A stretch of DNA of 64,000 nucleotides from an uncultured delta proteobacterium. GTDB lineage: Bacteria; Desulfobacterota; Binatia; UBA9968. The notes under the pieces are model-generated. The model made no database searches, was not told where the DNA came from, and worked only from the letters and a program-made list of their open reading frames with translations. The stretch covers positions 1-64,000 of the forward strand of contig CAWDPO010000006.1 of NCBI GenBank assembly GCA_963804165.1. Reading direction: 5' to 3'. The translations under genes and the position numbers were made by a program. Shown piece after piece: positions 623-24,182 of this stretch. How positions within the stretch are numbered: position 1 is the stretch's first letter; every line of letters starts with the position of its first letter.

Positions 623-669
623 GCAGAAGAGTCTCTTGCTGACTACTGACCACTGACTACTGACTACTC

Positions 670-1416
670 TCATCGAATCACCTTGTCCGCCCGCGCCAGC
701 ACATTCGGCGGAACTACGAGTCCGATCTGTTTTGCTGCTTTCAAATTGATCACCAGTTCGAACTTCTTTGGCTGCTCCACGGGAAGATCGGCGGGCTTAG
801 CACCTTTCAAAATCTTGTCCACATACGTGGCGGCGCGCCGCTCCAACTCGGCGAAGCTCGTGCCGTAGCTCATAAGCCCTCCGGCCTCTTCCACATAGTT
901 GATTTGCGGGTATATCGCCGGAAGCCGGGTCTTTACGGCATGTTGCGCCAGCAATGTTCGCTCAGAAAGAGGCCCTGGAAAACCCAGTACGAAAACTGCG
1001 TCAGCCCGTTCCTTGCTAGCCAAAAAGACTATGGGGATCGTGGTCGTCGCTTCCTTGGCGGCCCGGGTATCTGTCGCACCAGACGTGACGATGACATCCA
1101 CTTTGAGACGCAAGAGTTCGGCCGCACGCGCTGGCGCACGACTGAAATTTCCCTCCGGCTTTGGATATTCAATGGTGATGCTTTTTCCCTCGACGTAACC
1201 GAGATCGCGCAGGCTTTGTCGGAAGGCGACGAATTGGCCCAAGGTACCGCTACCGAGAAATCCTATCCGCTGGACTTTCTTCGCCTGCTGCGCGTCGGCA
1301 GGAGAAGCAGTTGTTAGCAAGACAGTTGCCAGTAGCCAGACAAAGATTTTTCCGCTCATTAGTTTCGCTCCCGTATTATTGCCGACAACTGATAACCGAC
1401 CACTGACATCTGTCAT
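670..1416 (-). CDS. SBP unit 2 with in-frame internal deletion (likely start ATG near 1359)
   Basis: TIPIVF is joined directly to LASKERADA; the LARPGGNxTG block is missing. Confidence 0.8.
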   Translation of the reverse strand: MTDVSGRLSVVGNNTGAKLMSGKIFVWLLATVLLTTASPADAQQAKKVQRIGFLGSGTLGQFVAFRQSLRDLGYVEGKSITIEYPKPEGNFSRAPARAAELLRLKVDVIVTSGATDTRAAKEATTTIPIVFLASKERADAVFVLGFPGPLSERTLLAQHAVKTRLPAIYPQINYVEEAGGLMSYGTSFAELERRAATYVDKILKGAKPADLPVEQPKKFELVINLKAAKQIGLVVPPNVLARADKVIR

Positions 1417-1420
1417 CTAA

Positions 1421-2455: not shown

Positions 2456-2506
2456 GTTTTTGTCTCCTTGAGCCCAATCGAAAATCTAAAATCGGCAATC
2501 GAAAAT

Positions 2507-3493
2507 TCACTTGATGACTCTGTCCGCTCGCACCAGCACATTCGGCGGAATCGTCAGGCCGATTTGCTTGGCGGCTTTAAGATTAATCACGAACTCGAAC
2601 TTCTTCGGCTGCTCCACCGGTAGATCCGAGGGCTTAGCGCCTTTGAGGATCTTGTCGACATAAGTGGCGGCGCGGCGGTATAAGTCGGTAACGCTCACGC
2701 CGTAAGACATAAGCCCGCCGTCTTCCACATATTCCGGCGCGTGGTATATCGCCGGGAGCCGGCTCTTTACCGCGAGGGCCGCAATCTGTTTTCGCTGAAG
2801 ATTGAAGACGCCGCCCTGCAGCACAAGGACTGCGTCAGCACGCCCTTTGCGCGCCTCTCGGAATGCAGTCTCAATATCCTTGGGACCTGGCACGTCTAGG
2901 TATTGAAGGTGTAACGTTGAACACCCCTGCGGCGAGCTCCATCTCTTTTAACACTTGTGCGGTGCCCGTGGTGGTCGAAGTCCCGAGTACAGCCACCCGG
3001 GCGAGCCTGGGAACGATCTCCTTCAGAAGCTCCAGTCGTTTTCCGCCCATCTCTGGGGCAAGGTTGGACAAGCCAGTAATGTTCCCGCCAGGTCGCGCAA
3101 GGCTGGCGACGACCCCGCTCCCAACCGGATCAGCATCGTTCGCCATGACAATGGGAATCGTGTTCGTCGCTTCCTTGGCGGGACGGATTGATGCCGGACC
3201 GGCCAAGACCATGACGTCTACCTTCAGACGCACAAGTTCGGCGGCGAGCGCTGGCAGGCGATCTAGTTTTGCCTCTGCATATCGATACTCAATGAGAATG
3301 TTTTTCCCCTCCACGTAGCCAAGCTCGCGCAGACCCTGCCGGAATGCGTCGAGGCGGGCCGAGATAGCGGAAGGAGAGGTAGCACCTAGGAATCCTATCC
3401 GGGCGACTTTCGTTGGCTGCTGCGCCTGGGCGGAAACACAAAGTTATCAGCAAGACAGATGTCAGTAACCAGAAAAGAGATTTTGAGATTCAT
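2507..3493 (-). pseudogene. SBP unit 4, frameshifted (or sequencing error)
   Basis: Fragments 2871-3314 and 2507-2893; mature part nearly identical to unit 18. Confidence 0.8.
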
Positions 3494-3545
3494 TGTCTTC
3501 CCACCTGTTCCTTACTGGTAACTGATCACTGCCCACTGACCTCTG

Positions 3546-4535
3546 TCACTTGATCACCTTATCCGCTCTCGCCAACACATTCGGCGGAATCGTCAGTCCG
3601 ATCTGCTTCGCCGTCTTCAGATTGATCACCAACTCGAATTTTGTCGGCTGCTCGACCGGCAGGTCGGCGGGCTTGGCTCCTTTCAGGATTTTGTCCACGT
3701 AATATGCGACGCGCCGGTAGCTGTCCGCGAAGTCCGCCCCGTAGGACATGAGCCCGCCGGCATCTACAGCGTCTTTTCTGCCGTACACCGACGGTAACCG
3801 GCTCTTTAACGTAAGGCCCGTGATCCGTTTTTGGTTAGCAGTCATTAGCGCCGCTCGTGGTCACGTAGAGTCCATCCGGGCGGTCCTTGTTTAGCGCAGC
3901 GAAGACCTTCTCGAAACCGTCCGCGTCTCGTACCTCCCAAGCCTGAACAGTCAGCCCCAGCGCGCGCGCCGCGACTGGGAGATCCTCTTTCACCTCGAGT
4001 ACAGCGGCCGGAGTGGCCCGCTCGTAGAGAACCGCGATACGGGCAACTTTGGGAACCGCTTCCTTGAGTAACTCCAGCCGCTTCCCGCCTAGTTCTCTGG
4101 AAAGGGTTGTAAGCCCGGTGACATTGCCGCCGGGACGGGCAAGGCTCTCAACAAGGCCCGACTCGACAGGATCGGCCGAAATGCCCATCATAACGATGGG
4201 AATCGTCTTGGTCGCATTCTTGGCCGCCCGGATTGGGCGCGTTCCTGGCACCACGATGATATCAACTTTGAGACGCACCAGCTCAGCCGCAAGGCCAGGT
4301 AGCCTATCTGGCTTCCCCTCCGCATATCGGTACTCGATGGCGATGTTCTGTCCTTCTATGTAGCCAAGCTCGCGCAGAGCCACCCGAATTGCCTCGGAAC
4401 GGGTGGACTCACCAGCTGGATCGGATTGACTAGATACCCTATCCGCGCGACTTTCTTCGGCTGTTGCGCCTCGGCAGAAAAGCAAAGCGCTAAGAGCAAA
4501 GTGCCAAGCGCAAGACCAAAGAATTTTCTTCTCAT
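3546..4535 (-). pseudogene. SBP unit 5, frameshifted
   Basis: Fragments 3835-4485 and 3546-3845; MRRKFFGLALG leader starts at 4535. Confidence 0.8.
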
Positions 4536-4590
4536 GAATCTACTCCTGTGTTTTTGCCGCTGCTCCTTGCTATTTGCTCCAAGTTCCCTG

Positions 4591-5619
4591 CTACTTGATC
4601 ACTCTGTCCGCTCTCACCAGCACATTGGGCGGAATCGTCAGGCCGATCTGCTTAGCCGCTTTTAGATTGATTGCGAACTCAAACTTAGTCGGCTGCTCGA
4701 CAGGAATGTCGGCGGGCTTGGCGCCTTTTAGAATCTTGTCGACCATCGATGCAGCGCGCCTAAAGGATTCGGCTCGGTCCGGGCCGTAGGACATCAAGCC
4801 GCCACTCTCGACAAAATCTCGCCGAGCGTAAATCGCAGATAGTCGATGCTTTGCCGCGAGTTGTGCGATCTGTTTCTGATGAGCGCCGGCCATTGAGTCC
4901 TGAGGCACAGCGAGCGCTAGGATACGAGCCTTAATTGCATCCTTGAACGCGCCCTCATATTTATCAGCCGTGCTTACTTCCATGGAATGAAGCTGCAAGC
5001 CCAGTTCTCTCGCCGGGTGTAGGCTTTCTTTCCATTGTTGGAGCGAGGCTGGATCCTGCGGATTCCACAGCACCGCAACGCTGGAGAGCTTGGGTACGGT
5101 TTCCTTGAGCAACTCGAGCCGCTTGCCAGACAATATCGCCGCGACGCTGGTGAACCCCGTGATGTTGCCCCCCGGGCGCGCCAGGCTGTCAACCAACCCG
5201 GCCGAGACGGGATCAGTCACTCCAATGACGATGATAGGGATCGTTCTGGTAGCGTTCTTGGCGGCTAAGGCAGCCGCTGTAGACGAGGTGATGAGTATAT
5301 CAACCTTCAGACGGAGCATCTCATCAACCAGCGCGGGAAAACGGTCAAATTTATTATCAGCGGATCGATATTCGATGACGATATGCTTGCCCTCGACATA
5401 GCCCAATGCCCGTAACTCTCGCCGCAATATCTCAGTCGAAGCGTCTCGCTCAGCGAAGGAGCCTCTGAGCAACCCAATCTTTTTTACCTTTGCCTGCTGC
5501 TGCGCCTCGGCGGAAACAAAAGTTATCAGCAAGACAGTTATCAGTAACCAGAAAAGCGATTTTGAATTCATAGTCTTTCCACTTCTTTCTACTGGTAACT
5601 GATCACTGACCACCGACAA
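4591..5619 (-). CDS. SBP unit 6 (likely start ATG 5571)
   Basis: Intact ORF, signal peptide MNSKSLFWLLITVLLITFVSAEAQQ. Confidence 0.9.
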   Translation of the reverse strand: MSVVSDQLPVERSGKTMNSKSLFWLLITVLLITFVSAEAQQQAKVKKIGLLRGSFAERDASTEILRRELRALGYVEGKHIVIEYRSADNKFDRFPALVDEMLRLKVDILITSSTAAALAAKNATRTIPIIVIGVTDPVSAGLVDSLARPGGNITGFTSVAAILSGKRLELLKETVPKLSSVAVLWNPQDPASLQQWKESLHPARELGLQLHSMEVSTADKYEGAFKDAIKARILALAVPQDSMAGAHQKQIAQLAAKHRLSAIYARRDFVESGGLMSYGPDRAESFRRAASMVDKILKGAKPADIPVEQPTKFEFAINLKAAKQIGLTIPPNVLVRADRVIK

Positions 5620-5622
5620 CTG

Positions 5623-6706
5623 TTACTTGATCACCTTGTCCGCTCGAAACAGCACCGACTGCGGAATATTGAGGCCGATCTGTTTCGCCGCTTTCAGATT
5701 GATGATGAACTCAAACTTGGTCGGTTGCTCCACTGGTAAGTCAGCAGGCTTCGCACCCTTCAAAATTTTGTCGACGAAAACGGCGGCGCGCCTGAAGAGT
5801 TCAGCCTGGTCGGCGCCGTAGGACATCAAACCACCGCTCTCGACAAAGTCTCCCCGATAATATATCGCCGGCAAGTCGATTTTTTCTTGCCAGCTCGACG
5901 ATCCGTTTTTGATTAAGAATTGATAAGTCGCGCTCTGACGTCACAGCGAGAGCGGCGCGCCCGCTTTATTGCCTCATGTGAACGCATTGTCTAATTGGTC
6001 CGCACGGCGCACTTCCATGGAATGAAGTTGCAAACCGAATTCTCCCGCCGGCAAGCTGGCTTTCTTTCCATTGCGGTTACGTCGCTCGGACCACTGGGAA
6101 TCCCATAGCACCGCGACGCGGGAGAGTTTGGGAATGGAATCCTTGAGTAACTCCAGCCATTTGCCAGCCAACAGTCCGCGCAATAGTGGTGAATCCAGTG
6201 ATGTTCGCGCCAGGCTGAGCTAGGCTATCAACCAATCCAGATCGACAACAGGATCACCACGGCCCCCAAGAAAACTATGGGAATCGTCCTGGTAGCATTT
6301 TTGGCAGCTAGTGGAGTCATTCAAACCACCGGCAACAATGATATCGACTTTGAGACGGACCAATTCTTCCGCAAGGGCAGGGAGGCGGTCGAGCTTACCT
6401 GTCCGCGTATCTCGACTCGATCACTATGTTCTTACCCTCAAGATAACCAAGTTTACGCAACTCCGGCAGAATTAAGTCGATTCTCGTGGTTGAAGCGGCA
6501 GAACTGGGCGAGAGCCAGCCGATCTTAGGTATTTTACCTTGCTGCTGTGCCTGAGCCACAGCGCCACACATTGTGAATGTGACAGCGATAGCGACAATCC
6601 CACCCCATTTTAGATTTTGGATCCCTCGGTAAGACTCAGGACAGGTTTTCGATTTTGGATTGTCGGAGAAAGAACCCAAAAATTGTTTGAGCAATGTGTT
6701 GTGCAT
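5623..6706 (-). pseudogene. SBP unit 7, multiple frameshifts
   Basis: Fragments 6395-6706, 5974-6183, 5623-5874. Confidence 0.8.
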
Positions 6707-6750
6707 CAGATTTTTCCCCTAATCGAAAATCGGCAATCGAAAATCTAAAA

Positions 6751-7742
6751 TCATTTGATGACTCGATCCGCTCGCACCAGCACATTCGGCGGAATCGTCA
6801 GGCTGATCTGCTTGAGCGGTTTTCAGATTGATGATCAGCTCGAACTTCATCGGCTGCTCTACGGGCAGTTCCGCTGGGTTTGGCACCTTTCAAAATCTTG
6901 TCTACGTACCATTGGCGGCACGCCTGTATTGATCAGCATTGTTGGTCGCATAGGACACAGTCCACCGGCCTCTACGTACTCATTTCCCGAGTACATTGAG
7001 GGCAACCGATTTTCTATGGCCAGGTCCGCGATCCGTTTAGCATAACGGTTAAACACGGGCGCCCTATCCGTAATGAGCGCACTCACGCGCCCCTGGGTTG
7101 CGGCTTTAAATGCGCCGTACAAATCGGGACTCGCGCCTCGTAGCTCTAGAGATTGCACCTGGACCTTTAGCGCCCGCGCGGCAGCCTGGTATTCTTTTAG
7201 GGAACGAGCCGCTGTCGCACCGTCCGCATGCCACAGGACGCCGACGCGTGATATCCCCGGCACCATTTCCTTGAATAGTTCCAGGCGTTTGCCGCCTAGG
7301 TCTCGGCCAAGCGTGGAGAGCCCGGTAACATTGCCTCCGGGCGCGCCATGCTATTGACTATCCCGGCCGCGACAGGGTCTGAATTAGTCACCATGACGAT
7401 GGGGATCGTCTTGGTCGCCTTCGTGGCAGCGTGAATAGCGGTTGAAGTTCCCAAGACCAAAGCATCGACATTGAGTTGCACAAGTTCAGTTACGAGGCCT
7501 GGGACCCGGTCCAGCTTTCCCTCAGCGTAGCGATACTCAACCCGGATGTTTTTCCCCTCGTGATAACCGAGATCTCGGAGACCTTGGCGAAACGCCTCGA
7601 CGAACGGTGGGGGACGAGATGGATCACCGTTTGTCGACAGGTATCCGATCCGCGGGATTTTCGTTGGCTGCTGCGCGCAGACGGGAAAGCAGAGCGCAAA
7701 GAGCATGGCGTAAAGAGTAAGGACCGTGATTTTTTTCTTCAT
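6751..7742 (-). pseudogene. SBP unit 8, multiple frameshifts
   Basis: Fragments 7296-7742 and 6859-7266 plus conserved tail ending at 6751. Confidence 0.8.
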
Positions 7743-7762
7743 GTCTTTTTTCTGTCTCGATT

Positions 7763-7870
7763 TACTTGCGCCGTGACACTGCAGCCAAGGACGGCGCAGT
7801 GTTCCGCAAACACCGCAAACGCCTCGCCCGCCAAGCCCGCATGCTCATCACGGAGCAAGCGCGCTCGTGA
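7763..7870 (+). pseudogene. Probable C-terminal remnant of an antitoxin
   Basis: YLRRDTAAKDGAVFRKHRKRLARQARMLITEQARS*; its TGA overlaps the toxin GTG (GTGA); no N-terminal DNA-binding domain. Confidence 0.45.
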
Positions 7871-8202
7871 GGCGGGGCAAGATCTACCGAACGCGCGAAC
7901 GGGTTCTGGAGCATGGAGCAAAGCCCGGTTTTTACGTCGTCGTATCTCGAACCTTTGTCGCGGAACACGAAGATGTCTCGACCGTGATCTGCGCTCCCGT
8001 TTACGGTGAAGTCCTCGGTCTTACAACGGAGGTCGTGCTCGGACCAGAAGATGGACTGCCACGGACTTCCGCCATCCGCTGCGATTTTCGTACACTGATG
8101 TTCAAGAGCAAGCTCACTCACTTTGTGTCCACATTGTCGGCATTCAAACTCGCCCAACTCAACCGCGCCTTTGCTCACGCTCTTGAACTCCCGTCACGAT
8201 AA
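7867..8202 (+). CDS. PemK/MazF-family toxin
   Basis: MRRGKIY...KPGFYVVVSR...VICAPV...GLP..SAIRCD pattern, 111 aa. Confidence 0.85.
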   Translation: MRRGKIYRTRERVLEHGAKPGFYVVVSRTFVAEHEDVSTVICAPVYGEVLGLTTEVVLGPEDGLPRTSAIRCDFRTLMFKSKLTHFVSTLSAFKLAQLNRAFAHALELPSR

Positions 8203-8280
8203 GGTGCAGACAATATCGTTACCGTATTCACGTATTTTGGATTTGTTTTTCCCAACTCGAAACCCAGAACTCGAAACGCC

Positions 8281-9330
8281 TTATCGAATAACTCGGTCCG
8301 CCCGCGCCAGCACGTTAGGCGGAATCGTAAGACCAATCTGCTTGGCTGCTTTCAGATTGATGATGAACTCGAACTTCTTTGGCTGCTCCACCGGGAGATC
8401 GGCGGGCTTAGCGCCCTTCAAAATCTTGTCGACATACGTAGCGGCGCGCCGAAATAAGTCGTTATAGTTAGTGCCGTAGTACATGAGGCCGCCGGCGGCG
8501 ATAAATTCCGGATGGAAGTATGTTGCGGGGAGCCGATGCTTGACCGCAAGCTCGACAGCTTGTTTTCGCTGGTTATTGAGGATGAGGTTCCCCAGCAGAA
8601 GGAGCGCGTCGGCACGTTCCTCGGTAGCGGCTCGGAACGCAATCTCAATATCCTTGGGACTTACGACGCTTAGATAGTGAACCTTGATGCCAAGCGCCTT
8701 CGCCGCGAGTTCCACTTCTTTCAAATTTTGCGTGTTACCCGGTTCCTCGTTGTTGCCAAACACGGCCACGCGCGCGAGCTTCGGCACGATCTCCTTGAGA
8801 ATCTCCAGTTGTTTTCCGCTTAGCTCAGGGCGCTGCGCTGACAATCCGGTAATGTTCCCCCCGGGTCGCGCAAGGCTGGCGACGAACCCGTTGCCAACCG
8901 GATCGTCATCAAAACCCATGACAATCGGAATCGACGTGGTAGCGTTCTTGGCGGTACGGGTTGCTATCGGACCTTGGGTGACGATGACGTCTACCTTGAG
9001 GTTCACGAACTCGCTCGCAAGCGCGGGGAGGCGATCGAGTTTTCCTTCCGCCGAGCGCCACTCAACGAGGATGTTTTTCCCCTCCTCGTAGCCGAGCTCG
9101 CGCAGTCCTTGGCGCAGCGCCTCGGTGCGGGCAGGGCTGTTGGAAAATGGGTTGCCGGTCAAATACCCTATCCGGGGAAGTTTCGTCGGCTGCTGGGCCC
9201 GTACTTCAACCCCGCACATTGCGAATGTGATGACGAGAGCAACAATCCCCACCAATTTTGGATTTTGGATTGCCGATTTTGGATTATCGGAGGAAGAAAC
9301 CAAAAACTGATTCAGTAGTCTTTTGATCAT
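8281..9330 (-). CDS. SBP unit 9
   Basis: Intact 349 aa ORF. Confidence 0.9.
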   Translation of the reverse strand: MIKRLLNQFLVSSSDNPKSAIQNPKLVGIVALVITFAMCGVEVRAQQPTKLPRIGYLTGNPFSNSPARTEALRQGLRELGYEEGKNILVEWRSAEGKLDRLPALASEFVNLKVDVIVTQGPIATRTAKNATTSIPIVMGFDDDPVGNGFVASLARPGGNITGLSAQRPELSGKQLEILKEIVPKLARVAVFGNNEEPGNTQNLKEVELAAKALGIKVHYLSVVSPKDIEIAFRAATEERADALLLLGNLILNNQRKQAVELAVKHRLPATYFHPEFIAAGGLMYYGTNYNDLFRRAATYVDKILKGAKPADLPVEQPKKFEFIINLKAAKQIGLTIPPNVLARADRVIR

Positions 9331-9384
9331 GTGCTTTTCCGAAGTCCGAATTTCTTACTGTTGCCTGTTGCCTATTGCCTTGCT

Positions 9385-10487
9385 TCATTTGATTACTTTG
9401 TCCGCCCGCACCAACACATTCGGCGGGATCGTCAGCCCGATCTGCTTCGCTGCTTTCAGATTGATGATGAACTCAAACTTCGTCGGCTGTTCGACAGGGA
9501 GATCAGCGGGCTTGGCGCCTTTGAGAATCTTGTCCACATACGTAGCAGCTCGCCGGAACAAGTCGGTAAAGCTCACGCCGTAGCTCACAAGCCCGCCCTC
9601 TTGGACAAATTCTAGATCGCAAAGTATACTCGCTGCTAGCCGGCTCTTTGCCGCGAGCTCTGCCAACTTGAATTCGCTGAGAATTGGTGACTGCGGCTCA
9701 CCAGCAACAGAACTGCGTCGGCACGCCCCTTGCTCGCGGCTTGAAAAGCGGTCTCAATATCCTTGCGGTCTAATATGTCTACGTATTGAATCTTCACTCC
9801 GAATGCTCCTGCGGCGAGTTCGGTCTCTTTTAGCGATTGCGCGTTACCTGGTTGGCTCGAAGTCCCGAGGACGGCCACGCGAGTGAGCCTCGGAACGATC
9901 TCCTTCAGAAGCTCCAGTTGTTTGCCGCTTATCTCCGGGGCAAGGCTGGACAGTCCGGTAATGTTACCGCCCGGTCGCGCCAGGCTGGCAACGACCCCGG
10001 AGCCAACAGGATCACTATCGAACGCCATCACAATGGGAATCGTAGAAGTTGCTTCCTTGGCTGCACGGGTTGATGTCGGACCCGTCGTGACAATCACATC
10101 GACGTTGTGATGCACTAGCTCGGCCGCAAGCTCGCTCAGCCGATCAAGTTTTCCCACAACGCCCCGAGACTCGATAACAATGTTTCTCCCTTCCACGTGA
10201 CCAAGCTCGCGCAGCCCTTGGCGGAATGCTTCGGTGCGGGCCGCGATGGAGGTAAGGGAGACAGCAGCTAAAACTCCTATCCGGGGGATTTTCGTTGGCG
10301 GCTGCGCCGGAGCCACAGCGCCAGCCATCACGAAAGTGACGACGAGAGCAAAAATCCCCACCGATTTTCGATTTTTGATTTTGGATTTCCGATTGTCGGA
10401 ACAAGAGAAACAAAATCGAATTTGAAATTTCCTTTGCATTCGTTTTTCTCCGTAATCGAAAATCGGCAATCGAAAATCTAAAATCAT
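9385..10487 (-). pseudogene. SBP unit 10, frameshifted
   Basis: Fragments 9636-10487 and 9385-9666. Confidence 0.8.
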
Positions 10488-11557
10488 TTAATGACCCGGT
10501 CCGCCCGGTACAGCACGTTCGGCGGAACTGTCAGGCGGATCTGCTTGGCCGCCTTAAGGTTGATCACGAGCTCGAACTTTATCGGTGCTTCCACCGGCAG
10601 GTCAGCCGGCTTCGTGCCCCTTAGGATCTTGTCAACGTACGTCGCGGCCCGCCTGTGCATGCCCGAGTAGCTTGGCCCATAGGACATCAAGCCACCCGCC
10701 TCGACCAACTCCACATAAGCATGCACGCCTGGTAAGTGGTTTTGGGTGGCGAAGTCCATGATGCGCACGCGGTGGTGCAGGAACAGTCGGTCTGCTAACA
10801 CGAGGAGCGCACCTGGTCGTTCTCTGAGAATTGTCGCAAATGCATTGTCGAACTGCTCCTCGGCTTGCACCCCCAGCGACAGCACTTTTATTTTCATTGC
10901 ATGAGCAGCCGCCTGTGTCTCCTTTTCCCCCGCCACCTGCAAGGGGCTGGTGGGATTCCAGAGCACCGCAACGTGCGAGATTTTAGGGACCACTTCCCTG
11001 AGCAACTCCAACCGCTTCCCGTCTAGCTCCGGTGAGATCGAGGTCAACCCGGTGAGGTTTCCACCAGGGTGGGCGAGACTCGCGATGAGGCCCGACCCCA
11101 CGGGGTCCCCGACGGCGATCATGACAAGGGGCAGCGTCGTTGTCGCCTGCTTGAGAGCGATCGTGGCGGGTGTGCCGGCGGTAACGATCAGTTCGACCTT
11201 CGAGGCGATCAGCTCCGCGATGAGGGCAGGAAAGCGCTCGTACTTTCCTTCCGCCCATCGCCACTCAATGACGATGTTTTTACCCTCGACATAGCCAACG
11301 TCATGCAACCCTTCGCGAAAGGGCCCGATCAGATTTGCCTCCAGGGCAGCGGTAGAGTTTCCCAGGAAACCGATCCGGGGGACCTTCCCTTTCTGCTGCG
11401 CCTCAGCCGTTCCCACACACCCCACGAGCAGGACGAGGATTAGAAGAAACCCCACCCATTTTAGATTTTGGATACTTCGACTCAGCTCAGTACAGGTTTT
11501 AGATTTCCGATTATCAGAGCGAGAATTTGGAGATCGCATCCAGGTTTTCTCATACAT
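10484..11557 (-). CDS. SBP unit 11
   Basis: Intact ORF with family motifs. Confidence 0.9.
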   Translation of the reverse strand: MYEKTWMRSPNSRSDNRKSKTCTELSRSIQNLKWVGFLLILVLLVGCVGTAEAQQKGKVPRIGFLGNSTAALEANLIGPFREGLHDVGYVEGKNIVIEWRWAEGKYERFPALIAELIASKVELIVTAGTPATIALKQATTTLPLVMIAVGDPVGSGLIASLAHPGGNLTGLTSISPELDGKRLELLREVVPKISHVAVLWNPTSPLQVAGEKETQAAAHAMKIKVLSLGVQAEEQFDNAFATILRERPGALLVLADRLFLHHRVRIMDFATQNHLPGVHAYVELVEAGGLMSYGPSYSGMHRRAATYVDKILRGTKPADLPVEAPIKFELVINLKAAKQIRLTVPPNVLYRADRVIK

Positions 11558-11574
11558 TTGTTTTTCTCCTCAAT

Positions 11575-12582
11575 CTAAAATCGGCAATCGACAATCCAAA
11601 ATTCATTGATGACTTTGTCCGCCCGCGCCAGCACATTCGGCGGAATCGTCAGGCCGATCTGCTTGGCCGTTTTCAGGTTAATTACCAATTCGAACTTCTT
11701 CGGTCGTTCGACGGGCAAATCGGCGGGCTTAGCGCCTTTGAGAATTTTATCCACGTACTCGGCGGCGCGCCGGTACTGCTCCGAACGGTCGCCTGCGTAA
11801 GTCATCAGTCCGCCCGCCTCGACGGACCGCGTGTTCGGAACCATCGCCGGAAACCGGTGTTTTATCGCTAGCTCTATGATTTGTTTTTGATTAGCGGTGA
11901 AAAACCCGCTGCCATCCACCAGAAGCGCTTCAGCACGCTTGTTGGCTGCGGCTTGAAATACTCCTTCGATTTCGTCAGACGTTTTCACTTCTAAGGATTG
12001 AATCCCGACCCGCAAGTGGCGAGCCACGGTCTCAATCTCTCTCAGGTTGCCGGCCGCGACTGGGCTGGTCGGACTCCAGAGAAAGCCGACCCGCGAGAGC
12101 TTGGGAATAATTTCCTTGAGCAGTTCTAACCGTTTTCCGTGTGTCTCGCCGCCCATAGAAGTCAGCCCAGTGATATTTCCACCGGGGCGCGCAAGGCTCG
12201 CGACGAGCCCGCTCCTAACTGCATCGCTGGTACTTGCCATGACAAGGGGAATTTCTTTAGTCGCGTTTTTAGTAGCCCTGGCTGCTTCATTGCCGATGGC
12301 AACGATAACTTCACAATCGAGGCGGACTAGCTCGGCGGCAAGCTCTGGCAGTCGCTCGACCTTCCCGTCAAAGTACCTGTATTCGATTGCGATGTTCTGT
12401 CCCTCGATGTGGCCGAGCTCGCTCAAGCGTTCACGAAACGGCTTCATGCTAGTCGCTGAAGTAGAAGCGGTGTTTCCGAGATAACCGATTCGCGCGACTT
12501 TCTTTGGCTGCTGCGCCCACGCCGGACTTAAAACAGCTAGAATCAACGTGGCGAGTATGAGCGCGGAGATCTTTTTATTCAC
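11575..12582 (-). CDS. SBP unit 12 (normal stop apparently lost by a 1-nt deletion; reads into junction repeat)
   Basis: Ends ADKVINEFWIVDCRF instead of ADKVIK*. Confidence 0.85.
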   Translation of the reverse strand: MNKKISALILATLILAVLSPAWAQQPKKVARIGYLGNTASTSATSMKPFRERLSELGHIEGQNIAIEYRYFDGKVERLPELAAELVRLDCEVIVAIGNEAARATKNATKEIPLVMASTSDAVRSGLVASLARPGGNITGLTSMGGETHGKRLELLKEIIPKLSRVGFLWSPTSPVAAGNLREIETVARHLRVGIQSLEVKTSDEIEGVFQAAANKRAEALLVDGSGFFTANQKQIIELAIKHRFPAMVPNTRSVEAGGLMTYAGDRSEQYRRAAEYVDKILKGAKPADLPVERPKKFELVINLKTAKQIGLTIPPNVLARADKVINEFWIVDCRF

Positions 12583-12643
12583 GCTTCCTCCAAGACAAAC
12601 CCATCAGCAATCGCTCCAGCAGGGCGCATGACAGGTATAAAAA

Positions 12644-13590
12644 TCATTTGATTCCCAATTCCCTCTGCGCCTCTCGGAGAATCGAGAGATCGGCAACTTC
12701 ACTCAAGGCAACCTCACGATCAATTTTCATAAGCCGTTTGGTGTCATCGAGGAGTCTGCGGAAACCATCCTCCGGCATGCTGCCGTCATTATTAAAACCT
12801 TTGATAAAAGAATCGTACGCCGCGCTGGCGACCTCTTTGTCATTCTATACGTGCTCATCAGCACCGGGATGGTTCCATCGCGATTCGCGCGCATGTAGCG
12901 GTTGGCTTTGATACCCGCGCGAATAACGCGCTTGACCTCGTCCGGTTTCTCTTTGATTTTCCTGATGCTGGCCGTCAGACCGCTGAAGGGATAGGTAAAG
13001 AGATCTTCCGATCGGACGATGACTGGAAAGCCCATCTTCCTGCCAAGGTAATCGGTGGGAACCGTGGCCATCGTGGCATCGAGTAGTCCTTGCTGCATTC
13101 TGATGTAGCGGCCTTCGTCTGAACCTGCGACGGCCCACTTCACATCCTTGTCCGGGTCGAGACCGAAGTGCTTGACGATAAGCCGCCCGACCAGATCGGG
13201 ACCGCCACCGAATGCGCGAACCCCGATGGTCTTGCCTTTAAGATCTTTGACGGTTTTGAACTCTGGCCGGCTCTGCAGCATGAAATGTGGCGTCGGGCGG
13301 TAGCACGCAGCGATCCTAAGCGGCAAACCCTGAAGGATCGCGCGCAGGGCGGAGCCAAAACCGCTGAAGTAATCAGTGTCGCCGTTACTGAGAGCGACGT
13401 TTGCCACCGGGCCCGAGATTATAACCAGTTCCGCGTCGAAGCCTTCCTCTTTTAGAAATCCTCTTTTCTGCGCCAAATGCATGGTGAAGTGCGCCGCGTC
13501 TGCCGGCGTGCTGATTCTGATCTTGTCCGCCGCGTGGATCGACGTGTGGAGAAGACAAATAGCGAGCAACGCCACAAATATTTGCTTCAT
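12644..13590 (-). CDS. NMT1/SsuA-type substrate-binding protein, frameshift near the C-terminus
   Basis: Signal peptide, AQKRGFLKEEGFDAEL, KTVKDLKGKTIGV motifs; shifted tail ends ELGIK*. Confidence 0.8.
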
Positions 13591-13645
13591 GTATTTTTTT
13601 CTATCTCCATCCACTTGACACTCGACACTTGACACTCGCCCCTTC

Positions 13646-14639
13646 TCACTTGATCACCTTATCCGCTCGATACAGCACGATTGGCGGAATTGTCACACCG
13701 ATCTGCTTCGCTGTTTTCAGATTGAATACCAGCTCAAACTTCGTCGGCCGCTCTACCGGCAGATCGGCAGGCTTGGCTCCCTTGAGGATTTTGTCCACGT
13801 AAGTGGCTGCCCGCCGGTAGATGTCCGCGAGGTCCGCCCCGTAGTACATGAGCCCACCGACATCTACCGATTCTCTGGTGCTGTATACCGACGGTAACCG
13901 ACGCTTTAACGCAAAGCCCGCGATCCGTTTTCGGTTATCACGCGTTAGCGGGCCCGCTGGCACGTAGAGTCCATCCGGGCGCTCCTTGCTCGAACGCAGC
14001 GAATACCTTCTCGAAATTGTCCGCGCCTCGTACCTCCCAGGGATGAATGGTCAACCCCAGCGCACGCGCCGCGACTGGGAGAACCTCTTTCAGCTCGAAT
14101 ACACTGGCCCGACTGGTCGGATCGTGGAGAACCGCGACACGGACAACTTTAGTAACGGCTTCTTTGAGCAGCTCGAGTCGCTTACCGCCTAATTCAGCGC
14201 TAAGATTTGTAATGCCGGTAACGTTGCCGCCGGGACGGGCAAGGCTATCAACAAAGCCCGCCTCGACAGGATCGTCGGAGAGTTCCCCATCACAATAGGA
14301 ATCGTCTTGGTCGCATTCTTAGCCGCCTGGATCGGCCCGCTTCCTCCCAGCTGCCACGATGAGATCAACCTTGAGATGCACTAGCTCGGCCGCAAGCTCA
14401 GGGAGCCGATCAAGCTTCCCCTCCGCATATCGGTACTCGATGGCAATGTTCTGTCCTTCAATGTAGCCAAGCTCGCGCGGAGCGCGCCGAATTGTCTCGG
14501 AACGAGCGGAGGCAAGAGATGGCTCGCTCGACGTTAAATACCCTATCCGAGGGACTTTCTTCGGTTGCTGCGCCTGAGCGGGAAAGCAAAGCGCAAAGAG
14601 CAAAGTGCCAAGCGCAAGACCAAAGAATTTTCTTCTCAT
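13646..14639 (-). pseudogene. SBP unit 13, frameshifted
   Basis: Fragments 14319-14639 and 13646-13963. Confidence 0.8.
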
Positions 14640-14694
14640 GAATCCACTCCTGTGTTCTTGCCGCTGCTCCTTGCTATTTGCTCCATGCTACCTG

Positions 14695-15673
14695 CTATTT
14701 GATCACCTTATCCGCCCGCGCCAGCACGTTGGGCGGAATCGTCACGCCGATCTGCTTGGCCGTTTTCAGATTGATGACAAGCTCAAACTTCTTGGGACGC
14801 TCTACGGGCAGGTCCCAGGTTTTGTGCCCTTTAGAATTTGATCGACGTACTCAGCTGCGCGGCGGAATTGATAAGGGCGATCATCGAGTAAGTCATCAGT
14901 CCACCAGCCTCGACGTATCGAGTGTTGTTATACATCGCTGGAAGTCGACTCTTCGCCCCTAGCTCTAAGATTCGTTTTTGGTGAAAGGCGAAGAGGCCGC
15001 CTCCCGACACCAAAAGCGCCTCAGCGCGCTTCTTGGTTGCAAGTCGAAATGCTGCATCGAAGTCGTCAGGCCCTTTCACCTCGATGGCTTGAAGCTCTAA
15101 ACTTATTGACCGCGCAATGGTTTCAATCTCTTTAACTTGGACATCCACGCCTGGATTCGTCGGACTCCAGATGAAAGCGACCCGCGAAAGTTTGGGAACG
15201 ATCTCTTTGAGTAGCTCGAGCCGTTTTCCGTCCAGTTCAGTGCCAATTGAAGTCAACCCCGTGATGTTTCCGCCGGGACGCGCGAGATCCGAGACGATCC
15301 CACGCCGGAGAGCATCCCCGCCAAACGCCATAACAACCGGGACCGTCTTGATCGCGTTCTTGGCAGCCTGCGCCGCTTCAGTCCCGGATGTAACGATAAC
15401 GTCACAGTTGAGACGGACTAACTCGGCGGCAAGCTCTGGCAGAAGCTCAACCTTTCCCTCCCAAGACCGGTGCTCGATTGTGATGTTCTGCCCCTCGGTG
15501 TAGCCGAGTTCGCGTAAACGTTCACGAAATGGTTTCATGCTATTCGCTTCGACCGAAGCGCTGTTCCCTAGATAACCTACGCGCGCGCCTTTCTTTTGCT
15601 GCTGCGCATCGGCATATGAGCCAGTAGTCAGTAGAGCACTGGTCATTAGGCAGATCCCGATTTTTCGCTTCAT
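14695..15673 (-). pseudogene. SBP unit 14, frameshift in the C-terminal part
   Basis: ORF 14831-15673 plus out-of-frame conserved tail. Confidence 0.8.
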
Positions 15674-15702
15674 GTTTTTCCTTTTGGCTTTTACTTTTGC
15701 CT

Positions 15703-16680
15703 TTACCTAATCACCCGATCCGCTCGCGCCAGCACATTCGGCGGAATCGTCAGACCGATCTGCTTGGCGGCTTTCAGGTTGATCACCAGATCGAATTTAG
15801 TCGGCTGTTCGACGGGCAGATCCGCAGGCTTTGCGCCTTTGAGAATCTTGTCGACATAAGTTGCGGCGCGCCGGTCCAAATCGCGAATGCTCGTGCCGTA
15901 ACTCAGAAGTCCGCCATCGTCGACACGTGACGAATCGAAATAGATCGCCGGGAGCCGGTTTTTTATCGCGAGACTCGGAATCGGTCGCGAGATATGGGAC
16001 GGAGTATTCAGTACGATGACAGCCTCAGCGCGCCCTTTACTCGCCGTCTGAAACGCAACTTCAATATCCTTAGGATGACCTATTTCTAAGTATTGGACTT
16101 TTACGCCGAACTGATTTGCGGCGAGCTGCGTGTCTTTTAGCGATTGGGAGTTACCCGGATTGCTTGACGTGGCGAGGACGGCCACGCGCGAGAGCCGGGG
16201 AACGATCTCTTTGAGAAGCTCCAGACGCTTGCCGTTTAACTCCGCTGAGTAGGAGGACAGTCCAGTGATGTTCCCGCCGGGCCGCGCAAGGCTGGCAACA
16301 AAGCCATTGCCCACGGGATCAGCATCCTGCGCCATCACAATGGGAATCGTCGAAGTTGTTTGCTTAACGGGACCGGTCACGCTAGGTCCAGCCGTGACGA
16401 TGACACTAACCTTGAGATCCACGAGTTCTGCGGCGAGCCGCGGCAGACGATCGGCCTTTCCATCGGCAAATCGGTACTCAACCAGGATGTTCTTTCCCTC
16501 TATGTAGCCAAGCTCGCGAAGGCCCCGCCGGAAGACTTCGAACCGACGCGCCTGCATGGCAGCAGAGCTGGCTGTTACGTACGCTATCCGCGGGATGTTC
16601 GCAGGCTGCTGCGCCTCGACAGAAAAAACAGTAAACAGAAAGACAGTTAGCAGTAGGCAGGAAAGAATTTGTTTGATCAT
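15703..16680 (-). CDS. SBP unit 15
   Basis: Intact 325 aa ORF. Confidence 0.9.
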   Translation of the reverse strand: MIKQILSCLLLTVFLFTVFSVEAQQPANIPRIAYVTASSAAMQARRFEVFRRGLRELGYIEGKNILVEYRFADGKADRLPRLAAELVDLKVSVIVTAGPSVTGPVKQTTSTIPIVMAQDADPVGNGFVASLARPGGNITGLSSYSAELNGKRLELLKEIVPRLSRVAVLATSSNPGNSQSLKDTQLAANQFGVKVQYLEIGHPKDIEVAFQTASKGRAEAVIVLNTPSHISRPIPSLAIKNRLPAIYFDSSRVDDGGLLSYGTSIRDLDRRAATYVDKILKGAKPADLPVEQPTKFDLVINLKAAKQIGLTIPPNVLARADRVIR

Positions 16681-16727
16681 GCGTCTTGCTCCCGGTTTTC
16701 TTGCTGCTCACTGCTTACTGCTCACTG

Positions 16728-17837
16728 TCATTTAATAACTCTGTCCGCTCGCGCCAGCACATTCGGCGGAATCGTCAGGCCGATCTGCTTCGCCGTCTTC
16801 AGATTGATCACAAGCTCAAATTTCGTCGGCTGCTCCACCGGAAGGTCCCCCGGCTTTGCACCCTTCAGGATTTTGTCGACGTAATATGCGACGCGCCGGT
16901 AGATGTCTGCTAGGTCCGCGCCGTAGGACATGAGCCCGCCGGCATTTACGAATTCTCTGGTGAAGTACATCGACGGAAGCCGACTTTTTATCGCAAGGCC
17001 TGCGATTCGTTTTTGGTTAATATGCATTCGCGAGCCCCCGCCAAGCACGTAGAGACCATCCGGACGCTGCTTACTCAGCGCGGCGAATACCCGCTCGAAA
17101 TCGTCCGCGGCTCGTACCTCCCAAGACCTAACAGTCAACTTCAACGCGCGCGCCGCGACCGGGAGAGCTTCTTTCACCTCGCGTGCATTACCCAGAATGG
17201 CCGGATCGTAGAGAACCGCGACACGGGCAAGTTTGGCAACCGTCTCTTTGAACAGCTCCAGCCGCTTCCCTATTAGTTCTCTGCCAAGGTTTGTAAGCCC
17301 AGTGACGTTGCCGCCGGGACGGGCAAGGCTTTCGACTAGGCCTGCCTCGACAGGATCGTCCCCGCCGCCCGTCATAACGATGGGAATCGTCTTGGTCGCA
17401 TTCTTGGCCGCCCGGATCGGTAGGATCCCGCCTGCTACCACGATGAGATCAACCTTGAGACGCACCAGCTCGGCCGCAAGCTCAGGGAGCCGATCGGGCT
17501 TCCCCTCCGTATATCGATACTCGATGGCGATGTTCTGTCCTTCTATGTAGCCACGCTCGCGCAGAGCCAGCCGAATTCCCTCGGAACGCGTGGAGTCACT
17601 CGCCGCGTCGGCCGCCGCTAGATACCCTATCCGAAGGACTTTCTTCGGCTGTTGCGCCGATACCACAGCCCCACACATCGCGAATGTGATAACGAGAGCA
17701 ACAATCCCCACCATTTTGATTTTCGATTGCCGATTTTGGATTGTAGATTGAGAACAGCACAATCGAATCGGAATAGTTTCATTCATGTATTTTTCCCTAA
17801 TCCAAAATCTAAAATCGAAAATCCAAAATCTGTTCAT
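16728..17837 (-). CDS. SBP unit 16 (true start probably near 17787)
   Basis: Intact ORF. Confidence 0.9.
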
Positions 17838-18820
17838 TTGATGACTCTGTCCGCTCGCGTCAGCATTCTCTGCGGGATCGTCAGACCGATCTGTTTAGCT
17901 GTCTTGAGATTGATCACTAGCTCGAACTTCGTCGGCTGCTCGACCGGCAGATCCGCTGGCTTGGCGCCTTTTAGAATTTTGTCGACGTAAGTGGCTGCAC
18001 GCCGCTCCAAGTCGGTAAAGCTCACGCCGTAGCTCATTAGCACGCCGGCTTCAACAAATTCTGCCTGTGGTAGATCGCTGGGAGCCGGTTTTTTACCGCG
18101 AGTTCGTCAATCTGCTCTTCGGTGAGAATCGAGCGACGCGACTCGCTCAGCACGAGGACTGCGTCAGCACGCCCCTTGCTCGCGGCTCGGAATGCGGTCT
18201 CAATATCCTTGGGACCTCGTATATCGAGGAACTGAAGCTTCACCCCGAACGCCCCTGCGGCGCGTTCCATCTCTTTTAACGTTTGCGCGTTGCCCGGGTA
18301 GGTTGAAGTCCCGAGGACAGCCACGCGCGAGAGCTTAGGAACTGATCTCCTTCAGAAGCTCCAGTCGTTTGCCGCTTAACTCCGGGGCAAGGGTTGACAA
18401 TCCAGTGATGTTCCCGCCAGGCCGCGCAAGACTGGCGACGAACCCATTTCCAACAGGATCGGTATCCTGCGCCATGACAATGGGAATCGTAGAGGTGGCC
18501 TCCTTGGCGGCACGGGTTGCTGGCGCACCAGCCGTGACGATGACGTCTACCTTGAGCCGCACTAGCTCGGCCGCAAGCGCTGGGAGACGATCGAGGTTTT
18601 CCTCAGCGGATCGCCATTCAATGACAACGTTCTTTCCCTCGACGTATCTAAGCTCGCGCAGACCTTGCCGGAATGCCTCGATGCGGGCAGCGCTAGCGGA
18701 AGGGGAGCTTCCAACTAGGAATCCTATCCGGGCGACTTTGATTGTCTGCTGCGCGGCGGCAGGAACGCAAAGTGTAAAGAGCATGGCGCAAAGCGTAAGA
18801 CGCATGACGTTTTTACTCAT
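17834..18820 (-). pseudogene. SBP unit 17, frameshifted
   Basis: Fragments 18335-18820, 18037-18324, 17834-18043. Confidence 0.8.
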
Positions 18821-18920
18821 GGTCGTTCGCCCTGGGAATTGAAGCAGTGCAGTACTGGAGAAATGGTGTTAATCGATTCGTCCCAACATCCATGACTCCA
18901 ATACTCCATCATCCAGTTTT

Positions 18921-19970
18921 TCACTTGATCACCTTGTCCGCCCTCACCAGCACATTCGGCGGAATCGTTAACCCGATCTGCTTCGCGGCTTTCAGATTGA
19001 TGATGAACTCGAACTTCTTTGGCTGCTCCACTGGGAGATCGGCAGGCTTGGCGCCTTTCAGAATCTTGTCCACATACGTGGCGGCGCGGCGGTATAAGTC
19101 GGTAACGCTCACGCCGTAAGACATAAGCCCCCCGTCTTCCACATATTCCGGCGCATGATATATCGCCGGGAGCCGGCTCTTTACCGCGAGGGCCGCAATC
19201 TGTTTTCGCTGAAGATTGAAGACGCCGCCCTGCAGCACAAGGACTGCGTCAGCACTCCCTTTGCGCGCCTCTCGGAATGCAGTCTCAATATCCTTGGGAC
19301 CTGGCACGTCTAGGTATTGAAGGTGTAACTTGAACACCCCTGCGGCGAGCTCCATCTCTTTTAACACTTGTGCGGTGCCCGTGGTGGTCGAAGTCCCGAG
19401 TACAGCCACACGGCCCAGGCTGGGAACGATCTCCTTCAGAAGCTCCAGTCGTTTTCCGCCTATCTCTGGGGCAAGGTTGGATAAGCCAGTAATGTTCCCG
19501 CCGGGTCGCGCAAGACTGGCGATGACCCCGCTCCCAACCGGATCAGCATCGTTCGCCATGACAATGGGAATCGTGTTCGTCGCTTCCTTAGCGGGACGGA
19601 TTGCTGCCGGACCGGCCAAGACCATGACGTCTACCTTCAGACGCACAAGTTCGGCGGCGAGCGCTGGCAGGCGATCTAGTTTTGCCTCTGCATATCGATA
19701 CTCAATGAGAATGTTTTTCCCCTCCACGTAGCCAAGCTCACGCAGACCCTGCCGGAATGCGTCGAGGCGGCCCGAGATAGCGGACGGAGAAGTAGCACCT
19801 AGGAATCCTATCCGGGCGACTTTGGTTGGCTGCTGCGCCCGTACTTCAACCTCGCACATCGCGAATGTGATGACGAGAGCAATAATCCCCACCAATTTTG
19901 GATTTTGGATTGCCGATTTTGGATTGTAGGATTGAGAACAGCACAATCGAATCCGGAATAGTTTCTTCAT
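18921..19970 (-). CDS. SBP unit 18
   Basis: Intact 349 aa ORF. Confidence 0.9.
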   Translation of the reverse strand: MKKLFRIRLCCSQSYNPKSAIQNPKLVGIIALVITFAMCEVEVRAQQPTKVARIGFLGATSPSAISGRLDAFRQGLRELGYVEGKNILIEYRYAEAKLDRLPALAAELVRLKVDVMVLAGPAAIRPAKEATNTIPIVMANDADPVGSGVIASLARPGGNITGLSNLAPEIGGKRLELLKEIVPSLGRVAVLGTSTTTGTAQVLKEMELAAGVFKLHLQYLDVPGPKDIETAFREARKGSADAVLVLQGGVFNLQRKQIAALAVKSRLPAIYHAPEYVEDGGLMSYGVSVTDLYRRAATYVDKILKGAKPADLPVEQPKKFEFIINLKAAKQIGLTIPPNVLVRADKVIK

Positions 19971-20014
19971 GTATTTTTCCCTAATCCAAAATCTGAAATC
20001 GAAAATCCCGAATG

Positions 20015-21010
20015 CTATTTGATGACTCTGTCCGCTCGCGCCAACACGTTCGGCGGAATCGTGAGACCGATCTGCTTGGCGGCTTTCAGATTAATGATGA
20101 ATTCGAATTTTTTCGGCTGTTCGACGGGAAGATCAGCAGGCTTCGCGCCTTTGAGAATCTTGTCGACATAAGTGGCGGCGCGCCGGGTCAGGTCGTTCCG
20201 GTTCACGCCATAGGTCATTAGCCCTCCGGCTTCGACCAGATCCCCCGTGTAATATATCGCTGGCAGCCGGTTCTTAACCGCAAGCTCGACAAGCTGCTTT
20301 CGCTGAGGATTGAGCAGAGGAATACCCAGCACAACGATTGCCTCAGCACCACCCTTGCTCGCGGTTCGAAACGCGGCCTCGATAGCGTTGGGATCTAGTA
20401 AGTCTAGGTATTGAAACTTCAGTCCGAACGTCTTTGCAGCGTCTTCGATCTCTCTTAACGCCAGTGTGTTGCCCGGATTATTGGAACTGCCGAGAATGGC
20501 CACACGGGATAACTTAGGAATGATCTCCTTCAGAAGCTCGAGTTGTTTGCTGCTCAGCTCCGGTGCAAGCGTGGACAAGCCAGTAATGTTTCCACCAGGC
20601 CGCGCAAGGCTGGCGATGAACCCATTGCCTACAGGATCATTATCAAACGTCATGACAATTGGGATCGTGCTAGTCGCTTCCTTAGCAGCCCTCGTATCGG
20701 ACGGGCCAGCCGTGACAATGACGTCGACCTTGAGACGAATGAGCTCAGCCGCGAGGGCGGCAAGGCGATCGAGTCTTCCCTCCGCAGAGCGCCACTCAAT
20801 GACAATGTTCTTCCCCTCCTCGTAGCCAAGCTCGCGCAGCCCTTGAAGAAACATTTCGTAGCGGGCCGCATTAACAGACCGAGAGGAAGCGATCAGGAAT
20901 CCTATCCGTGGGACTTTGAGCGGCTGCTGGGCTTGAGTGGTGGAGGCGGTTGTCAGCAAGATAATAGTTGTCAGGAACAAGACAAAAATTTTTCCAACCA
21001 TCGCATTCAT
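20015..21010 (-). CDS. SBP unit 19
   Basis: Intact 331 aa ORF. Confidence 0.9.
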   Translation of the reverse strand: MNAMVGKIFVLFLTTIILLTTASTTQAQQPLKVPRIGFLIASSRSVNAARYEMFLQGLRELGYEEGKNIVIEWRSAEGRLDRLAALAAELIRLKVDVIVTAGPSDTRAAKEATSTIPIVMTFDNDPVGNGFIASLARPGGNITGLSTLAPELSSKQLELLKEIIPKLSRVAILGSSNNPGNTLALREIEDAAKTFGLKFQYLDLLDPNAIEAAFRTASKGGAEAIVVLGIPLLNPQRKQLVELAVKNRLPAIYYTGDLVEAGGLMTYGVNRNDLTRRAATYVDKILKGAKPADLPVEQPKKFEFIINLKAAKQIGLTIPPNVLARADRVIK

Positions 21011-21070
21011 CGTTGTTTTCCTCTGACGCGGAGCCTATCCTGAGCATGTCGAAGAGCCTCACCACTTACC

Positions 21071-24159: not shown

Positions 24160-24182
24160 TTCGCCTCCGAACAATGATAACC

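Follow-up and report, generated by a model that had tools for sequence, protein, structure and literature searches.

Introduction

The closest published analogue of the gene family described here is the lpl cluster of Staphylococcus aureus, in which tandem paralogues encode exported lipoproteins. In the part of that study considered here, a conserved stretch inside every open reading frame (ORF) is identified as a recombination site, the phylogenies on either side of it are incongruent, and novel combinations are ascribed to repeated homologous recombination (Tsuru and Kobayashi 2008; PMC2568036). The present locus is a tandem array of approximately 31 genes encoding PF04392 (ABC_sub_bind) substrate-binding proteins, at positions 1..33460 (minus strand) of a 64,000-nucleotide (nt) stretch, hereafter the window. 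The window covers the initial 64 kb of contig CAWDPO010000006.1 (C6) in assembly GCA_963804165.1, a metagenome-assembled genome (MAG) of an uncultured Binatia bacterium from soil (7.5 Mb, 46 contigs, completeness 81%, contamination 5%). In this family, leaders and mature domains have been exchanged among units at a shared junction, the Ala-Gln-Gln (AQQ) codons of the putative signal-peptide cleavage site.

Characterised PF04392 binding proteins are represented, in the portion of the source drawn on here, by three structures with L-Trp, L-Tyr or L-Phe (PMC10443332). The units in this genome belong to the same Pfam family and differ from those proteins in forming approximately 140 orphan copies without adjacent permease or ATPase genes. 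As in the lpl cluster, tandem paralogues carry a conserved nucleotide stretch with incongruence on its two sides; as far as the cited part of that report describes it, lpl has a single central site and a conserved unit that extends over two genes (PMC2568036), whereas two islands were found here, at the AQQ codons and at the end of the tail. An lpl-type two-gene unit was not found, the leader being unlinked to the upstream tail (Spearman 0.04). A further difference from lpl is that the exchanged cassette is often a heptamer-repeat palindrome in a family of approximately 140 members within one genome.

In Borrelia, the ospE/ospF/elp (erp) genes share an upstream homology box and a near-identical promoter and leader joined to divergent mature lipoproteins, an arrangement attributed to recombination. 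The erp genes are plasmid-borne, encode lipoproteins and do not form long tandem arrays, and we know of no palindromic cassette reported for them; the likeness to the present array lies in near-identical leaders on divergent mature parts. Repetitive extragenic palindromic (REP) sequences, bacterial interspersed mosaic elements (BIMEs) and REP doublets forming hairpins (REPINs) are short, numerous, species-specific intergenic palindromes associated with genes for IS200-like Y1 transposases, the REP-associated tyrosine transposases (RAYTs), and the REPs that separate malE from malF stabilise the message of the binding protein encoded upstream. Hairpin-forming palindromes are common to those systems and the present genome, although a weak test detected no repeat flanking a RAYT gene here. 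The palindromes of the present units differ from REP and REPIN sequences in having a coding arm, which specifies the signal peptide, and in being built from tandem heptamers, and they showed no link to the Y1 genes. Short tandemly repeated repetitive (STRR) sequences of cyanobacteria are tandem 7-nt repeats in intergenic DNA; the repeats of the present genome come from another phylum, have other sequences, and form inverted arrays around a start codon that are partly translated. The silent leaderless cassettes and dedicated recombinase of systems such as Mycoplasma vsa/vsp and the shufflons were not found, and each unit has a leader. A literature search on PF04392, Binatia binding proteins, signal-peptide hairpins, heptanucleotides and tandem paralogues (full texts) found no description of this arrangement.

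Mosaic structure of the binding-protein units

Units 4 and 18, which the preliminary description had reported as near-identical mature domains behind unrelated leaders, form the only long match of ≥ 88% identity inside the array (positions 2506-3426 and 18920-19839; 95.0% over 921 nt). Identity between the two was 97.2% in the mature region and 84.6% in the tail, and the 130 nt upstream could not be aligned. The 5′ changepoint in identity fell 1 nt ahead of the GCG codon of AQQ, and the 3′ changepoint fell at nt 762, in the first codons of the tail; the 762 nt before this point contained 20 mismatches, and the remaining 157 nt contained 25. The mature domain and tail of unit 18 (18921..19838, minus strand) have an intact frame, which includes the conserved C-terminal tail (18921..19076, minus strand; ...ADKVIK). 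Unit 4 (2507..3425, minus strand) is a near-copy that is disrupted as assembled, with one extra mature-region base relative to unit 18 (column 725 of alignment A1), ORFs split at 2871-2893 and an ATG that does not share the reading frame of the mature domain.

The relatives of these two leaders were found in front of other mature domains, as had been noted. The spacer-plus-leader cassette of unit 4 (3426..3545, minus strand; type T3) matched that of unit 6 (5506..5622, minus strand; type T3, MNSKSLFWLLITVLLITFVSAEA) at 89.0% over 130 nt upstream, and the mature regions of these units were only 55% identical. Similarly, the leader of unit 18 (cassette 19839..20014, minus strand; type T2) matched that of unit 9 (9199..9384, minus strand; type T2) at 85.3% and that of unit 16 (17658..17833, minus strand; type T2) at 91.3%, with mature-region identities of 67.7% and 61.9%, respectively. 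Inspection of alignment A1 by eye gave approximately 4–5 mismatches between units 18 and 9 across about 100 nt ending at GCAGCAGCC. The best local upstream match of each of these leaders stopped 10–15 nt beyond the junction. Units 9 and 18 have the NPKSAIQNPK arm and signal peptide in common; in unit 18, this arm is encoded by AATCCAA-type heptamers with an inverted copy upstream. The different upstream repeat noted earlier for unit 9 was also recovered, as AGGCAAT/AGGCAAC heptamers on the coding strand, equivalent to TTGCCT on the plus strand.

The uncoupling of leader and mature domain was confirmed across the genome and is not confined to the window. A total of 140 tblastn matches extended into the conserved C-terminal tail, mostly in arrays on contigs C6, C38, C37, C16, C5 and C7, and all 140 units were cut at the aligned junction for segment comparison. 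Mature identity was ≥ 85% in 35 pairs, and leader identity was < 75% in 27 of them with enough upstream sequence; another 83 pairs combined ≥ 80% leader-region identity with dissimilar mature regions. Pairs with 92%–98% mature identity and unalignable leaders were also present. Leaders common to different units were 80%–95% identical and not identical, and most exchanges were old (8%–15% divergence). Two collinear stretches of C16 (156998-159104 and ca. 162400-164452) were ca. 80% identical in the first unit and ca. 90% identical in the second, with a non-homologous cassette between them.

Leader types were defined from the 90 nt before the junction by single linkage at 75%, which divided 137 units into 12 types (2–20 members) and 65 singletons. 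On a maximum-likelihood tree (IQ-TREE) built from the mature regions of 67 typed units, with five near-duplicate or atypical rows dropped (C38_1336m, C38_2369m, C38_3489m, C38_9837m and C5_10337m), leader type was scattered as if at random: it required 44 changes, compared with a minimum of 10 and with 43.3 ± 1.7 for shuffled labels, and 740 of 1000 shuffles were as low as the observed value. When only starred branches were considered, the 13 T2 rows still required 10 or more changes and the 8 T3 rows 7 or more. Approximately unbiased (AU) tests rejected both a T3 clade (log-likelihood difference 963, p 4e-58) and a T2 clade (difference 1432, p 4e-5). Units 4 and 18, of types T3 and T2, respectively, were sisters with 100/100 support, and well-supported young mature clades held up to six leader types (e.g., a 14-member clade with 100/100 support). 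The separate segment trees suggested in the preliminary description were therefore strongly incongruent.

Breakpoints and flanking DNA

The breakpoint analysis showed that breakpoints concentrate at the AQQ codons. In the 27 leader-discordant pairs, 23 changepoints lay between −8 and +5 nt of GCG, and in the 33 pairs of the opposite kind, 26 lay between +8 and +38, just beyond the conserved AQQPxKxxRIG codons. Because choosing pairs by segment biases changepoint positions somewhat, an unselected all-against-all blastn search (≥ 88%) was also run. It returned 15 high-scoring segment pairs (HSPs) longer than 900 nt, of which seven were whole-unit duplicates running through the leader and eight began at the junction (at −30, −8, −7, −4, −3, −2, −1 and +5). 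Breakpoints were also detected internally, at nt 376 and 512. A second preferred boundary lies where the mature tract ends on its 3′ side, with changepoints at nt 762–837 in seven of ten pairs. The proposed exchange among units at the signal-peptide cleavage site was thus supported, both in the exchange itself and in the shared junction; the crossovers or gene conversion suggested as its cause would be compatible with this pattern.

The AQQ junction island (GCGCAGCAGCC) lies at 19828..19838 in unit 18 and at 3415-3425 in unit 4 (both minus strand). A-Q-Q occurred at the aligned junction in 102 of the 140 units, and among these 102, the Ala codon was GCG in 84 (crude genome value 0.42) and the two Gln codons were CAG in 91 and 94 (crude genome value 0.56). 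In the 61 intact units, the effective codon number was 1.2–1.8 at the junction and 1.1–1.9 at the majority of conserved positions between tail residues 287 and 300, compared with mostly 2.3–5 at other conserved residues with four- to six-fold degeneracy. In the tail of unit 18, codon-level conservation covers the last 45 nt or so. These low codon numbers indicate that the DNA on either side of the cassette is conserved more strongly than the protein requires.

Palindromic heptamer-repeat cassettes

The spacer-plus-leader cassette is often a palindrome of 100–180 nt composed of heptamer repeats, one arm of which encodes the signal peptide. This feature, together with the 3′ boundary of the mature tract and the genome-wide scope, goes beyond what had been described previously. 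The cassette of unit 4 forms a long hairpin with a predicted RNA folding energy of −39.4 kcal/mol (z −2.8; matched by 1 of 200 shuffles), and that of unit 6 folds at −36.6 kcal/mol (z −3.4). In both folds, the spacer immediately after the upstream stop codon pairs with the hydrophobic-core codons, leaving the ribosome-binding site and ATG in the loop; in unit 6, the arm in the spacer and the arm coding for the hydrophobic core are reverse complements of each other. The T2 cassette of unit 16 forms a long hairpin from arms of AATCCAA-type heptamers, with the ATG in the loop (−39.8 kcal/mol, z −3.1). Folding was weaker in unit 18 (z −1.2), and unit 9 had no stable hairpin (z 0.05). Among the 79 cassettes with a defined upstream stop, z was < −2 in 28 and < −3 in 12 (mononucleotide shuffles). 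The best hairpins fill almost the whole interval from stop codon to AQQ, as in C37_128060m, where positions 5–123 of 125 nt are paired. An alignment of seven T3 sequences kept 26 pairs with 94% of cells paired, and covariation comprised four compensated pairs, compared with 0–2 when the partner was slid. The T1 and T2+T7 alignments were too gappy for consensus folding and yielded just 5 and 10 pairs, respectively.

Self-identity within cassettes peaked at lags 7 and 14 (36.7% and 34.4%, compared with 24%–29% at other lags). These peaks were present in every leader type, including singletons, and absent from the mature region. Leaders of the PF04392 units, as read from the translations, are hydrophobic and end in A-x-A before QQ. 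No Rfam family matched within positions 1-34000, and promoter- and terminator-like sites were not enriched (6 vs. 9.6 and 15 vs. 21.1 in shuffles, respectively). Phase variation through heptamer copy number was also considered and was unsupported, the repeats consisting of just 2–4 degenerate copies.

Heptamer-repeat palindromes are a genome-wide class of element in this MAG. A mismatch-tolerant scan, which superseded an overly strict scan for hairpins with exact 8-mer seeds (six loci), detected 205 long hairpin loci, of which 190 were outside the arrays. The extra-array hairpins that were inspected were likewise built of 7-nt repeats in inverted arrays (e.g., TGGAGTA and GTTCAAR). Within the window, an intergenic palindrome of GTTCAAR heptamers lies at 47447..47521, and similar intergenic heptamer palindromes lie at 37094-37173 and 62625-62682. 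The motif AATC[CGT]AAAATC occurred at 137 sites, including 50 outside the binding-protein units. Translations such as LECWSIGVMEYW or LNGLNDLN recur in the heptamer palindromes.

Occurrence in other genomes

The AQQ discontinuity recurred in the independent assemblies G004 (10 contigs), G012 and G017 (7 contigs), and in many other Binatia MAGs, protein matches began at residue 44–45. Of 12 further genomes in the genus, including G005, 11 contained DNA matches to units 16-18, which mostly ended at the junction coordinate. In a small between-genome sample of 40 usable units from G004, G012 and G017, all 46 between-genome pairs with ≥ 80% mature identity (up to 90%) had leader identities < 65%. 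Leader identity of ≥ 80% was found in none of approximately 4,800 between-genome pairs, and pairs at that level do occur within G004 and within G017. By these comparisons, mature domains have counterparts in other genomes, whereas leader cassettes appear to have been homogenised, or to have spread recently, inside individual genomes.

Leader families similar to T1, T2 and T3 were seen in other genera. At 59 loci from other MAGs, eight cassettes had z < −2, compared with none of 59 controls, and the overall shift was non-significant (Mann–Whitney p 0.099); the cassettes that folded included T1-like, T3-like and a third sequence type. An array beside the orthologous thiolase-like gene was absent from G004; in G012 it was present but not collinear, with no unit-by-unit orthology, suggesting that the arrays turn over quickly. 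No public sequencing run contained > 0.13 of the words sampled from the window. The Logan contigs of four metagenomes provided pieces of ≤ 870 nt with 90%–99% identity, none of which joined a cassette to a mature domain, and two Logan contigs lacked the base at 2911, possibly representing another paralogue.

The closest relatives of unit 18 in public genomes were mostly labelled Candidatus Binatia. Close homologues were also found on short contigs of MAGs labelled Pyrinomonadaceae, Verrucomicrobia, Acidobacteria and Actinomycetota (loci L034, L048, L057, L061, L065 and others), for which mis-binned Binatia contigs seem likelier than transfer.

Mechanism and alternative explanations

Each unit may be regarded as three semi-independently evolving modules: a spacer-plus-signal-peptide cassette bounded by the upstream stop codon and the AQQ codons, a mature domain of approximately 760 nt and a conserved tail of 156 nt. 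We consider that ectopic homologous recombination or gene conversion among paralogues, resolved at the AQQ and tail-end islands, is the probable origin of the mosaics, an account held with moderate confidence. In this process, Sec-exported PF04392 paralogues would recombine ectopically by gene conversion or repeated unequal crossing-over, and resolution would be favoured in islands conserved at synonymous sites, one of them the sequence GCC GAG GCG CAG CAG CC at the putative signal-peptidase site and the other the tail end. Since these islands flank the modules, whole cassettes or whole mature domains would be exchanged, and any leader could come to lie ahead of any mature domain. A RecA-type mechanism is what we infer from this arrangement, and the hairpin might act on the mRNA, through its stability or translation start, or might promote breaks.

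Which module moves may differ among cases. Units 4 and 18 differ in both leader and tail, which favours copying of the mature domain, and a single mature-domain conversion would account for both boundaries. For the C16 block and the between-genome data, cassette replacement would be the simpler account. Both processes probably occur, and whole units are also duplicated. As an example of such duplication, unit 11 with the end of unit 12 (10484..11821, minus strand) is 95.3% identical to C37:147600-148939 and C38:2369-3708, and its leader and mature domain were copied jointly.

Several observations weigh against recombination at the islands as the sole account. Most units have a short AQQ island of 11 nt, and just 16 units have one of ≥ 17 nt, whereas efficient RecA exchange usually requires a longer stretch. 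The clustering of breakpoints at AQQ may merely reflect the absence of homology between leader types beyond it, and the eight junction-start HSPs stem from approximately five independent clusters of units, the pairs being non-independent. Across 3321 pairs, similarity between leaders did not follow similarity between the tails of their upstream neighbours (Spearman 0.04), contrary to simple co-conversion of the flanks. In addition, the pair of units 4 and 18 and the between-genome data point in opposite directions with respect to the module that moves. Frames were open from junction to stop in only 64 of the 140 units genome-wide and in 15 of 30 window units (a lower bound, two stops having been mis-projected), and the broken frames in about half of the units may reflect a decaying array or indel errors in the assembly.

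The short island, the lack of co-variation between leader and upstream tail, and the palindromic, genome-specific character of the cassettes keep an account based on mobile elements in contention, which we nevertheless regard as rather unlikely. The cassettes would then be REPIN-like palindromes or relatives of miniature inverted-repeat transposable elements, perhaps moved as single-stranded hairpins by Y1 transposases, that spread within a genome by landing between tail and AQQ with a ready-made ribosome-binding site and signal peptide. Such elements would explain why cassettes are palindromes that fill the stop-to-AQQ interval, why 190 of the 205 hairpin loci lie outside the arrays, with those inspected built of heptamers, and why no cassette was 80% identical between the sampled genomes. 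The window also encodes two IS200-like Y1 transposase homologues that are possible RAYTs, one 2.3 kb from the array (35722..36303, plus strand; a weak PF01797 match of 22.5 bits, below the cut-off of 23) and one farther away (58395..58994, minus strand; PF01797, 28.6 bits, cut-off 23). However, a weak test found no cassette-type inverted repeats beside either gene, significant folding was limited to approximately one-third of the cassettes (28 of 79 with z < −2), and cassettes are replaced precisely, with the reading frame kept, at a conserved coding island, which fits homology-directed exchange better than insertion. A broader and tentative possibility, more doubtful than recombination at the islands, is that the export signal is one arm of a genome-specific heptamer palindrome, and that cassettes comprising ribosome-binding site, start codon and signal peptide are spread or homogenised per genome and can be placed ahead of any mature domain at AQQ, the palindrome perhaps driving the shuffling through hairpin-induced breaks. 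Under this possibility, T-rich 7-nt repeats would yield a hydrophobic core or a K-rich N-region in any frame.

Programmed variation, in which site-specific recombination at AQQ switches the mature domain behind a leader and promoter as in Mycoplasma vsa/vsp or shufflons, would be consistent with a short junction sequence common to nearly all copies and with many tandem alternative mature domains. We consider it improbable, given that every unit has its own leader, all units are co-oriented, the 33-kb array contains no recombinase gene, most exchanges are old, and breakpoints also occur at nt 376 and 512. Chimeric joining of paralogues at conserved islands during assembly would be conceivable in a MAG of this completeness and contamination for which no source reads were found among public runs, yet an artefact of this kind is very improbable: the island is just 11–23 nt long, the AQQ discontinuity is also present in G004, G012, G017 and many other Binatia MAGs, and leaders common to different units are 80%–95% identical and not identical. 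It is equally hard to credit that no exchange took place and that ancient conserved leaders in front of fast-evolving mature domains produced the mosaics through rate effects or convergence. The T1-, T2- and T3-like leaders in other genera would suit that view, but young mature clades hold up to six leader types (the 14-member clade at 100/100), AU tests reject leader-type clades, and mature domains with 92%–98% identity follow unalignable leaders.

At the unusual scale of approximately 140 paralogues, these results show that a sub-gene module can be the evolutionary unit in a bacterial gene family, and that an export signal with its translation start can act as an interchangeable cassette. 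The link between palindrome and signal peptide suggests a route by which repeat DNA may be recruited into coding sequence, as well as a possible cause of recombination hot spots. For the annotation of Binatia and similar MAGs, it also implies that start codons, leaders and paralogue trees of the PF04392 family are unreliable at face value.

Organisation of the array and neighbouring genes

The array, delimited by tblastn with unit 18, Pfam and ORF lists, runs head-to-tail and is truncated by the contig start. Units 18, 9 and 6 scored 179, 186 and 170 bits, respectively, against PF04392 (cut-off 25.9; E-values 1.6e-52, 1.1e-54 and 8.6e-50). The 33 kb consist of binding-protein units, intervening cassettes of 95–200 nt and one NMT1-like gene, and no permease or ATPase gene was detected within the array by ORF lists, tblastn and Pfam. 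The gene that interrupts the array (12727..13635, minus strand) encodes an NMT1/THI5-like binding protein (Pfam PF09084, E 5.4e-13). Judged by eye only, the spacer of this NMT1-like gene (12727-13645) is apparently complementary to its own signal-peptide codons. The ORF of unit 12 passes the usual stop position (11575-11605) into an inverted heptamer-repeat arm (…ADKVINEFWIVDCRF).

A three-unit block is common to C37:146564-148939 and C38:1336-3708 with 96%–100% identity, and unit 11 (10484-11821) is ca. 98.6% identical to this block over 1,198 aligned nt. The block is either a recent segmental duplication or the result of redundant or strain-variant contigs in the MAG. Frameshifted-looking genes were also noted outside the array, namely a cupin dioxygenase-like paralogue and a DUF427-like overlapping ORF pair (62702-63742 and 43852-44666, respectively), and the density of frameshifts there seems to be below that in the array.

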